From an uncultured Actinomycetota bacterium (GTDB taxonomy: Bacteria; Actinomycetota; Actinomycetes; Propionibacteriales; Nocardioidaceae), in NCBI GenBank assembly GCA_963742785.1, contig CAVUNI010000003.1, forward strand, positions 436,692 through 500,691: 64,000 bases of DNA, written 5' to 3'. Positions 61,751 through 61,882 of the stretch are shown here, piece by piece (position 1 is the stretch's first letter; the number at the start of each line of letters is the position of its first letter). The position numbers and the translations under genes are program-made. Below the pieces are notes generated by a model. The model made no database searches. It was not told where the DNA came from and saw only the letters and a list, made by a program, of their open reading frames with translations.

Positions 61751-61798
61751 GTGTTTCCTCCTGGTCCGAATCCGTCATGGGACGGGGAGTGCGGACCG

Positions 61799-61882
61799 CT
61801 AGTTGATGTGCATGCTCATCGCGCTGTACTCATTGCAAGGGGTCTCATCGCAGGCTCATGAGCTCGTGCTCCCGTTCCTCAT
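61799..61882 (-). other. Chain of four ATGA-coupled minigenes between ylxR and infB
   Basis: MRNGSTSS* (61882-61856), MSLR* (61859-61845), MRPLAMSTAR* (61848-61816), MSMHIN* (61819-61799); each start overlaps the previous stop. Confidence 0.6.

Follow-up and report, generated by a model that had tools for sequence, protein, structure and literature searches.

The spacer between ylxR and infB in the window, by which we mean the whole 64,000-nucleotide stretch of DNA analysed here, contains a leader that is near-universal in the class Actinomycetes and apparently confined to that class. That this spacer holds a conserved functional element is practically certain. Our main reading, to which we give a probability of about one half, is that it forms a conserved cis-regulatory leader of infB, the gene for IF2, in which a relay of micro-ORFs is coupled to a three-segment RNA switch. 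The leader probably serves to control IF2 synthesis by ribosome traffic, and a cis-regulatory or autoregulatory role for IF2 is the most attractive reading.

On the minus strand of the window, the stop codon of ylxR leads into four mini-ORFs joined by ATGA overlaps (61882-61799), followed by a hairpin (61797-61763), an AGGAGG motif and the GTG start codon of infB (61750). The TGA of ylxR (61881-61879) shares bases with the ATG at 61882 of the first mini-ORF, and the outer part of the hairpin stem forms by pairing of GGTCCG (61797-61792) with CGGACC (61768-61763). A preliminary description of this DNA had reported the ATGA chain of four mini-ORFs behind the ylxR stop, which we could confirm base for base. 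The features of the region are collected in Table 1.

Table 1. Features of the ylxR-infB region in the window (window coordinates).
Feature	Position	Strand	Remarks
ylxR, YlxR/RnpM family, 115 aa	61879..62226	-	PF04296, E=3.9e-21
Mini-ORF a, MRNGSTSS-stop	61856..61882	-	two ATGA overlaps tie the ylxR stop to the conserved chain
G-rich SD-like element GGGAGC	61868..61873	-	8-9 nt 5' of the first conserved mini-ORF start
Mini-ORF b, MSLR-stop, 4 codons	61845..61859	-	first conserved chain member
Mini-ORF c, MRPLAMSTAR-stop, 10 codons	61816..61848	-	usual 5-codon frame plus in-frame 15-nt insertion
Mini-ORF d, MSMHIN-stop, 6 codons	61799..61819	-	last chain member; TAG 61801-61799, next base C
Leader hairpin	61763..61797	-	-15.2 kcal/mol (predicted)
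Hairpin 5' arm A, GGTCCG	61797-61792	-
Hairpin inner helix, CCGTC/GACGG		-
Hairpin 3' arm B, (GATT)CGGACC	61772-61763	-
infB Shine-Dalgarno (SD), AGGAGG	61757..61762	-	directly 3' of the hairpin, outside the stem
infB (IF2, 947 aa), GTG start	58907..61750	-	Pfam IF-2, GTP_EFTU, IF2_N
A', infB nt +9 to +18, GGTCCGAGTC	61733..61742	-	codons K3-V6; alternative partner of arm B

Upstream of ylxR, the window genome differs from 53 relatives in which nusA lies immediately 5' of ylxR. Here the nusA frame stops at about 64034 in window numbering (about 30 nt past the right edge), and a gap of about 1.8 kb separates it from ylxR. Two plus-strand genes occupy this gap, one for a GNAT acetyltransferase (ending at 63227) and one of the GH16 family (from 63268); thus, ylxR-infB must have a promoter of its own. 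On the minus strand of the window, a search for internal promoters and intrinsic terminators gave none.

The chain is not explained by chance. ATGAG is present in five copies within 70 nt at the leader, against 24 on the whole 64-kb strand, and nowhere else in the 4.75-Mb genome do four or more ATGAG fall within 80 nt. It also forms the longest run of overlapped mini-ORFs in that genome, and only 0.01% of random 220-nt windows contained at least three chained ATG-started ORFs of at most 12 codons (0.85% under lenient rules). There is one leader locus per genome; neither a second copy nor a regulon of the leader was found.

Conservation was assessed with the ylxR-infB regions of 41 genus and order genomes and of an even sample of 150 class genomes, which together yielded 168 leaders whose IF2 start could be identified. 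Of these 168 Actinomycetes leaders, 165 had three or more chained mini-ORFs within 220 nt of infB. When the frames were restricted to at most 12 codons, 164 leaders retained such a chain with ATG or GTG starts and 147 with ATG starts only. A pattern scan of public genomes matched Nocardioides, Marmoricola, Aeromicrobium, Kribbella, Microlunatus, Propionicimonas and relatives, which places the window in a Nocardioides-like organism. In the class sample, where taxon labels were assigned by inference and partly from IF2 N-termini, Streptomyces-like genomes (8-9 Mb) showed a 4-4-6 codon pattern and Mycobacterium-like genomes an ATG..GTGA..ATGA chain with a final TAA. A covariance model of the leader matched 29 of 33 members of the class; in about 365 genomes from other classes of the phylum it gave weak matches only, none of them at infB, and these were rejected as unrelated CGATGAGC tandem repeats at other genes. 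In 18 of these other-class genomes, ylxR runs up to infB and the chain is absent. The presence of the leader in almost every sampled Actinomycetes genome argues for strong selection. Two loci of the collection deserve mention. A typical actinobacterial ylxR-leader-infB locus was found on a probably mis-binned contig (CAWFMH010000004.1, L087) of a metagenome-assembled genome labelled Gammaproteobacteria, and the identical ylxR-infB regions on two scaffolds of one assembly of Nocardioides sp. zg-1230 (L059 = L092) likely reflect assembly redundancy.

Comparison of the leaders showed which parts of the chain vary and which are fixed. The conserved core consists of three frames, most commonly of 4, 5 and 6 codons; the patterns 4-4-6, 4-5-5, 4-5-7, 7-5-6, 6-5-6 and 4-10-6 also occur, and some leaders carry extra 14-nt units. 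In the alignment with its relatives, mini-ORF c of the window stands out by a 15-nt gap, corresponding to an in-frame insertion. The internal start codons are ATG or GTG and have no SD, a few junctions are TAATG or TGATG, and the final stop of the chain is TAG in 80, TAA in 64 and TGA in 24 leaders of the class; within the taxonomic order, CTCATGA-N5-CGATGA is invariant. An alignment across relatives had been proposed as a test of the chain, and its outcome is favourable: frame continuity is kept while the peptide sequence varies. The four-frame chain as first described must be amended at its 5' end, however: frames b-d are the conserved core, whereas mini-ORF a is lineage-specific, most congeners lacking an ATG at the ylxR stop. 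Direct chaining to ylxR is not a general feature either, the ylxR stop overlapping the start of the chain in 65 of 158 class leaders (41%). The remaining leaders have a gap between ylxR and the chain, exceeding 60 nt at its longest, and carry a G-rich SD-like element at a distance of 9-10 nt from the first start; in many leaders a GGAG, AGGT or GGGT ends 9-10 nt 5' of the first conserved ATG. In M. tuberculosis H37Rv, a transcription start site was mapped at 3148151 on the minus strand (mean coverage 514.5; Shell et al. 2015, S3 Table), inside the ylxR homologue Rv2840c and 278 nt before infB (Rv2839c). Thus, entry from ylxR is not obligatory, and the leader can lie in a long infB 5' UTR.

The stem reported right after the last stop proved to be real. 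It is present in 156 of 159 leaders, with about 10 bp and a median stability of -18 kcal/mol, and it begins a median of 1 nt past the final stop and ends a median of 13 nt before the GTG. Across 49 diverse leaders the outer six pairs are 95% paired, with UA, CG and UG covariation, while slid registers reach at most 60%. In two hairpin-less leaders, the last stop lies 20-21 nt from the infB start, which is near the 14 nt of flanks that remain when the stem is left out. The start codon of infB is GTG in all 168 Actinomycetes leaders, even where the N-terminal residues differ. The stem had also been thought to close against the infB SD and to carry an ACTCC that could pair with it. Neither proposal held: the stem ends 1-6 nt 5' of the SD, which lies outside it, and an anti-SD role for ACTCC or CCTCC in the hairpin loop was rejected because these motifs are not conserved in relatives.

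Arm B of the hairpin has a second potential partner, as it is complementary to infB nt +9 to +18 (AAG GUC CGN GUC). In the window, GAUUCGGACC pairs with GGUCCGAGUC over 10 bp (-17.3 kcal/mol), and the two folds are equal in energy (A:B -16.4, B:A' -16.9 kcal/mol). When B:A' is paired, the SD and the GTG lie in a 20-nt loop and infB +9 to +18 lies in the stem. Over the whole class, the median energy of the B:infB duplex is -17.3 kcal/mol, compared with -9.1 kcal/mol for a shuffled partner. Pairs from the same genome are stabler than permuted pairs (mean -15.7 versus -13.3 +/- 0.2), and in 89 distinct arm/infB combinations 83% of the cells are paired in register, compared with at most 52% in slid registers and 76.7 +/- 0.7% with permuted partners (maximum 78.7%, 1000 permutations), although these permutation statistics overstate independence, the genomes being phylogenetically related. 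At +15, the synonymous third base of an Arg codon, the pairs are C-G in 72 cases, U-A in 25, U-G in 10, G-C in 9 and A-U in 1, with 21 mismatches, and the changes occur in several families. Moreover, in lineages whose codon 4 encodes Thr, Ala or Pro (ACC, GCC, CCC), the arm carries matching changes (L171, L175, L178, L169, L087), and in L171 B:A' is a perfect 10 bp. Mycobacterium-like leaders show weak complementarity, as do some sub-lineages of family f30 and of Nocardioides. In unconstrained folds of 155 leaders, B was on A in 52 and on infB in 78; when arm A was masked, to mimic an assumed ribosome with the last stop in its A site, B paired with infB in 134 of 155. On balance, we favour the view that the B:A' pairing is functional. 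The preliminary description had supposed that opening of the stem licenses infB translation. The complementarity of the freed arm B to infB +9 to +18 suggests the opposite sign, namely that opening the stem should occlude the start region.

In our main reading, the leader would thus combine two modules. The first would be a relay of three (range two to six) micro-ORFs of about 3-7 codons each, in which every UGA stop overlaps the start that follows, as AUGA or GUGA and rarely as UAAUG or UGAUG. Ribosomes would enter it directly from the ylxR stop, as in the window, or at the weak G-rich SD-like element, and they would terminate and re-initiate at every junction. In the second module, arm B would pair either with A, leaving the SD and the GUG free (ON), or with A' (OFF), the latter being a stem of about 10 bp that would lock the initiation region and bury the +9 to +18 segment that the 30S must thread. 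A ribosome on the last stop, about 1 nt before A, would cover A and free B for A', so that infB initiation would be transiently shut; with B:A' blocking the infB start, a ribosome that finishes the relay would close that start rather than open it. In E. coli, re-initiation is raised by IF2 and lowered by IF3 (Yoo & RajBhandary 2008, summarised in PMC12548453), and completion of the relay would therefore report IF2 activity: the share of ribosomes completing three serial re-initiations would be a steep function of this activity, resulting in negative feedback. The negative sign, with IF2 as the sensed quantity, follows from thermodynamic folds and an assumed ribosome footprint, and we propose it tentatively. 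The fullest version, a dedicated IF2 homeostat whose three-step SD-less relay senses IF2 (or IF2/IF3) with power-law sensitivity and flips a bistable switch closing infB, is conceivable at similarly low odds.

A hand-over of ribosomes with a positive sign is the alternative that survives best, but we consider it unlikely. Ribosomes of the relay would melt the hairpin, the re-formed stem would bring the last stop beside the SD, and the ribosome would be passed to infB in a kind of prokaryotic 'shunt', so that IF2 synthesis would rise with upstream translation. The geometry is suggestive: the stop precedes the stem by about 1 nt, the SD follows it directly, and 20-21 nt separate stop and start where the hairpin is missing; the leaders chained to ylxR (41%) and a proposal that uORFs deliver ribosomes in mycobacteria (PMC12548453) point the same way. 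However, the infB SD is strong and unpaired (AGGAGG or AAGGAG), so that delivery would be unneeded, and the stem does not occlude it. Moreover, the complementarity of arm B to infB +9 to +18 and its covariation would be left unexplained, and an IF2-dependent re-initiation would here yield positive feedback on IF2.

The main reading further supposes that the micro-ORFs are translated, which the sequences make rather likely. A stop before the hairpin is found in the frame of the last start in 155 of 155 leaders, compared with 13 and 18 of 155 for the other two frames, a test that is partly circular, as the hairpin was sought downstream of that same stop. The spacing from ATGA to ATGA modulo 3 (297, 35 and 11) was dropped as a frame test because inherited 11- and 14-nt spacings dominate it. 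Several exceptional leaders are worth describing. In family f14 (L173, L181, L182, L192, L196), the first conserved ATG is an ACG, and an in-frame GTG 9 nt upstream, behind a full AAGGAG, restores a first frame of 7 codons; this replacement looks like a natural compensatory experiment favouring translation. In family f9 (L187, L216, L234), the chain is degenerate: its third ATG is an ACG, and frames 2 and 3 have merged into a single one of about 20 codons, which still ends at the conserved TAG before the hairpin. Four further leaders (L168, L171, L175, L087) have CAA, or CCA/TTG, in place of the usual final stop, and their last frame reads on to a TGA within the hairpin's 5' arm (GGTCTGAG). 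L237 carries three tandem copies of an 11-nt unit, CGATGACCACA, which add two more 4-codon frames and keep the chain.

Conservation in the chain goes beyond start and stop codons, with CGAUGAG(C) almost unchanged throughout. In 125 of 155 leaders the internal frames have CGA as their last sense codon, although across four local genes CGA makes up 7% of the Arg codons. AGC or AGT is the second codon in 120 of 155, and the base 3' of the final stop is C in 121 of 155. In E. coli, a C behind the stop codon makes for poor termination, and AUGAG, which we take to be complementary to C32-U36 in the anticodon loop of the initiator tRNA, might aid SD-less starts. A relay for which any ORF will do does not predict this near-invariance, and a sequence-specific RNA element would. 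It could thus be argued that the tract is an untranslated platform, in which CGAUGAGC copies at fixed spacing bind a trans-acting factor (for instance an operon protein or a ribosomal component) or form a structured RNA, the ORF chain being a by-product of the ATGA repeat and its spacing. The 11- or 14-nt units and their possible tandem duplication, as in L237, would fit such a platform, and GCUCAU could pair with AUGAGC; in a 21-sequence alignment, this invariant helix was the only one detected, with one compensatory case (L030). However, RNAalifold found no conserved helix in the well-aligned micro-ORF part of the 49-sequence class alignment, the window fold was no better than shuffles (z = +0.5), a scan of 61000-64000 against Rfam 15 at E<=10 gave no match in the leader, and the cluster occurs once per genome. 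A reading of CGAUGAG as a hammerhead core or as a K-turn / C-D-box was dropped, because the motif is not CUGAUGA and the flanking helices are unconserved. A platform explains neither the alternation of ATG and GTG at the junctions, nor the compensation of a lost ATG by an in-frame upstream GTG with an SD, nor the in-frame final stop of any kind just before the hairpin. We therefore regard it as improbable, somewhat more so than the hand-over.

Least probable is an element of mRNA processing or stability, in which the A/U-richer micro-ORF tract would be a cleavage region and the GC-rich hairpin the protective 5' stem-loop of a processed infB mRNA, or else a pause or termination signal uncoupling infB from upstream genes: a stable hairpin conserved immediately 5' of the RBS and the separate infB transcripts of M. 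tuberculosis, which start in the ylxR homologue, would agree with it, but the stem runs into AGGAGGAAACAC with no U-tract behind it, no terminator-like site was detected on the minus strand, and the frame continuity of the micro-ORFs and the B:A' covariation would have no explanation.

The proposed relay resembles known translational coupling, in which termination-reinitiation occurs at ATGA or TGATG overlaps (Huber et al. 2019, PMC6728339; review PMC12548453); NUGA-coupled uORFs have been described in M. tuberculosis (bioRxiv 10.1101/2022.06.01.494293). The junction types (AUGA, GUGA, UAAUG, UGAUG) and the co-directional frames are common to both, and the four ATGA junctions of the window have the stop/start overlap that characterizes such coupled ORFs (4 nt, A/GUGA, or 1 nt). 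Such overlaps abound in high-GC actinobacteria, and E. coli genetics tie re-initiation to IF2 and IF3. However, known coupling joins two real genes, or one uORF and a gene, whereas the leader has at least three consecutive frames of 3-7 codons. Moreover, its last frame does not overlap infB but ends about 43 nt upstream, at the foot of the hairpin.

A second likeness is to the attenuators of ermC and cat, where a short leader ORF precedes mutually exclusive pairings and the position of the ribosome selects the fold that frees or blocks the initiation region. Leader ORFs and alternative pairings of neighbouring segments are found here as well, arm B being shared by the mutually exclusive A:B and B:A'. 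The differences are several: there are three segments and not four, leader translation is predicted to repress, the occluded part is +9 to +18 and not the SD, and a chain of ORFs takes the place of a single one. Nor is an inducer or a stalling peptide evident. We saw no conserved stalling motif in the micro-ORF peptides, which vary freely except for Met-Ser and the terminal Arg, and the leader shows no sign of the ligand- or drug-dependent stalling on a specific leader peptide that marks such attenuators.

IF2 is essential, yet little is understood of the way in which bacteria set its level. IF3 and RF2 have textbook autoregulatory signals. Those of infC (an AUU start sensed by IF3) and prfB (a frameshift sensed by RF2) are decoded according to the activity of the factor itself. 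The infB leader is similar in that a translation-factor gene is preceded by a signal; here the sensed reaction would be SD-less re-initiation, three times in series. To our knowledge, no autoregulatory device of the infC or prfB kind is known for infB, and our search of the literature turned up no account of the micro-ORF chain, of IF2 autoregulation or, in Actinomycetes, of an infB leader of any kind. A geometric resemblance also exists to the shunt of plant pararetroviruses, in which a very short ORF ends a few nt ahead of a stable stem and initiation next occurs immediately behind that stem. The resemblance goes no further, as the viral shunt involves eukaryotic scanning and one sORF and, unlike the leader, has no alternative pairing to the coding region.

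Major antibiotic producers and model mycobacteria belong to the class that carries the leader. Provided that the relay is translated, it would offer a natural system for SD-less re-initiation, micro-ORF decoding and ribosome-driven RNA switching, and the question of IF2 autoregulation would become testable by simple reporters. If, in addition, the homeostat proved true, IF2 would have its first known autoregulatory device, and 'ribosome-counting' leaders would form a new class. The leader also illustrates that genome annotation overlooks frames as short as 4-6 codons even when they are conserved and functional. Outside the Actinomycetes, two loci from other classes of the phylum (L326, L335) carry 11-nt CCGATGAGCNN repeats in tandem where two unrelated genes meet. 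These look like ATGA stop/start junctions that have been duplicated, giving rise to additional micro-ORFs between the coupled genes.
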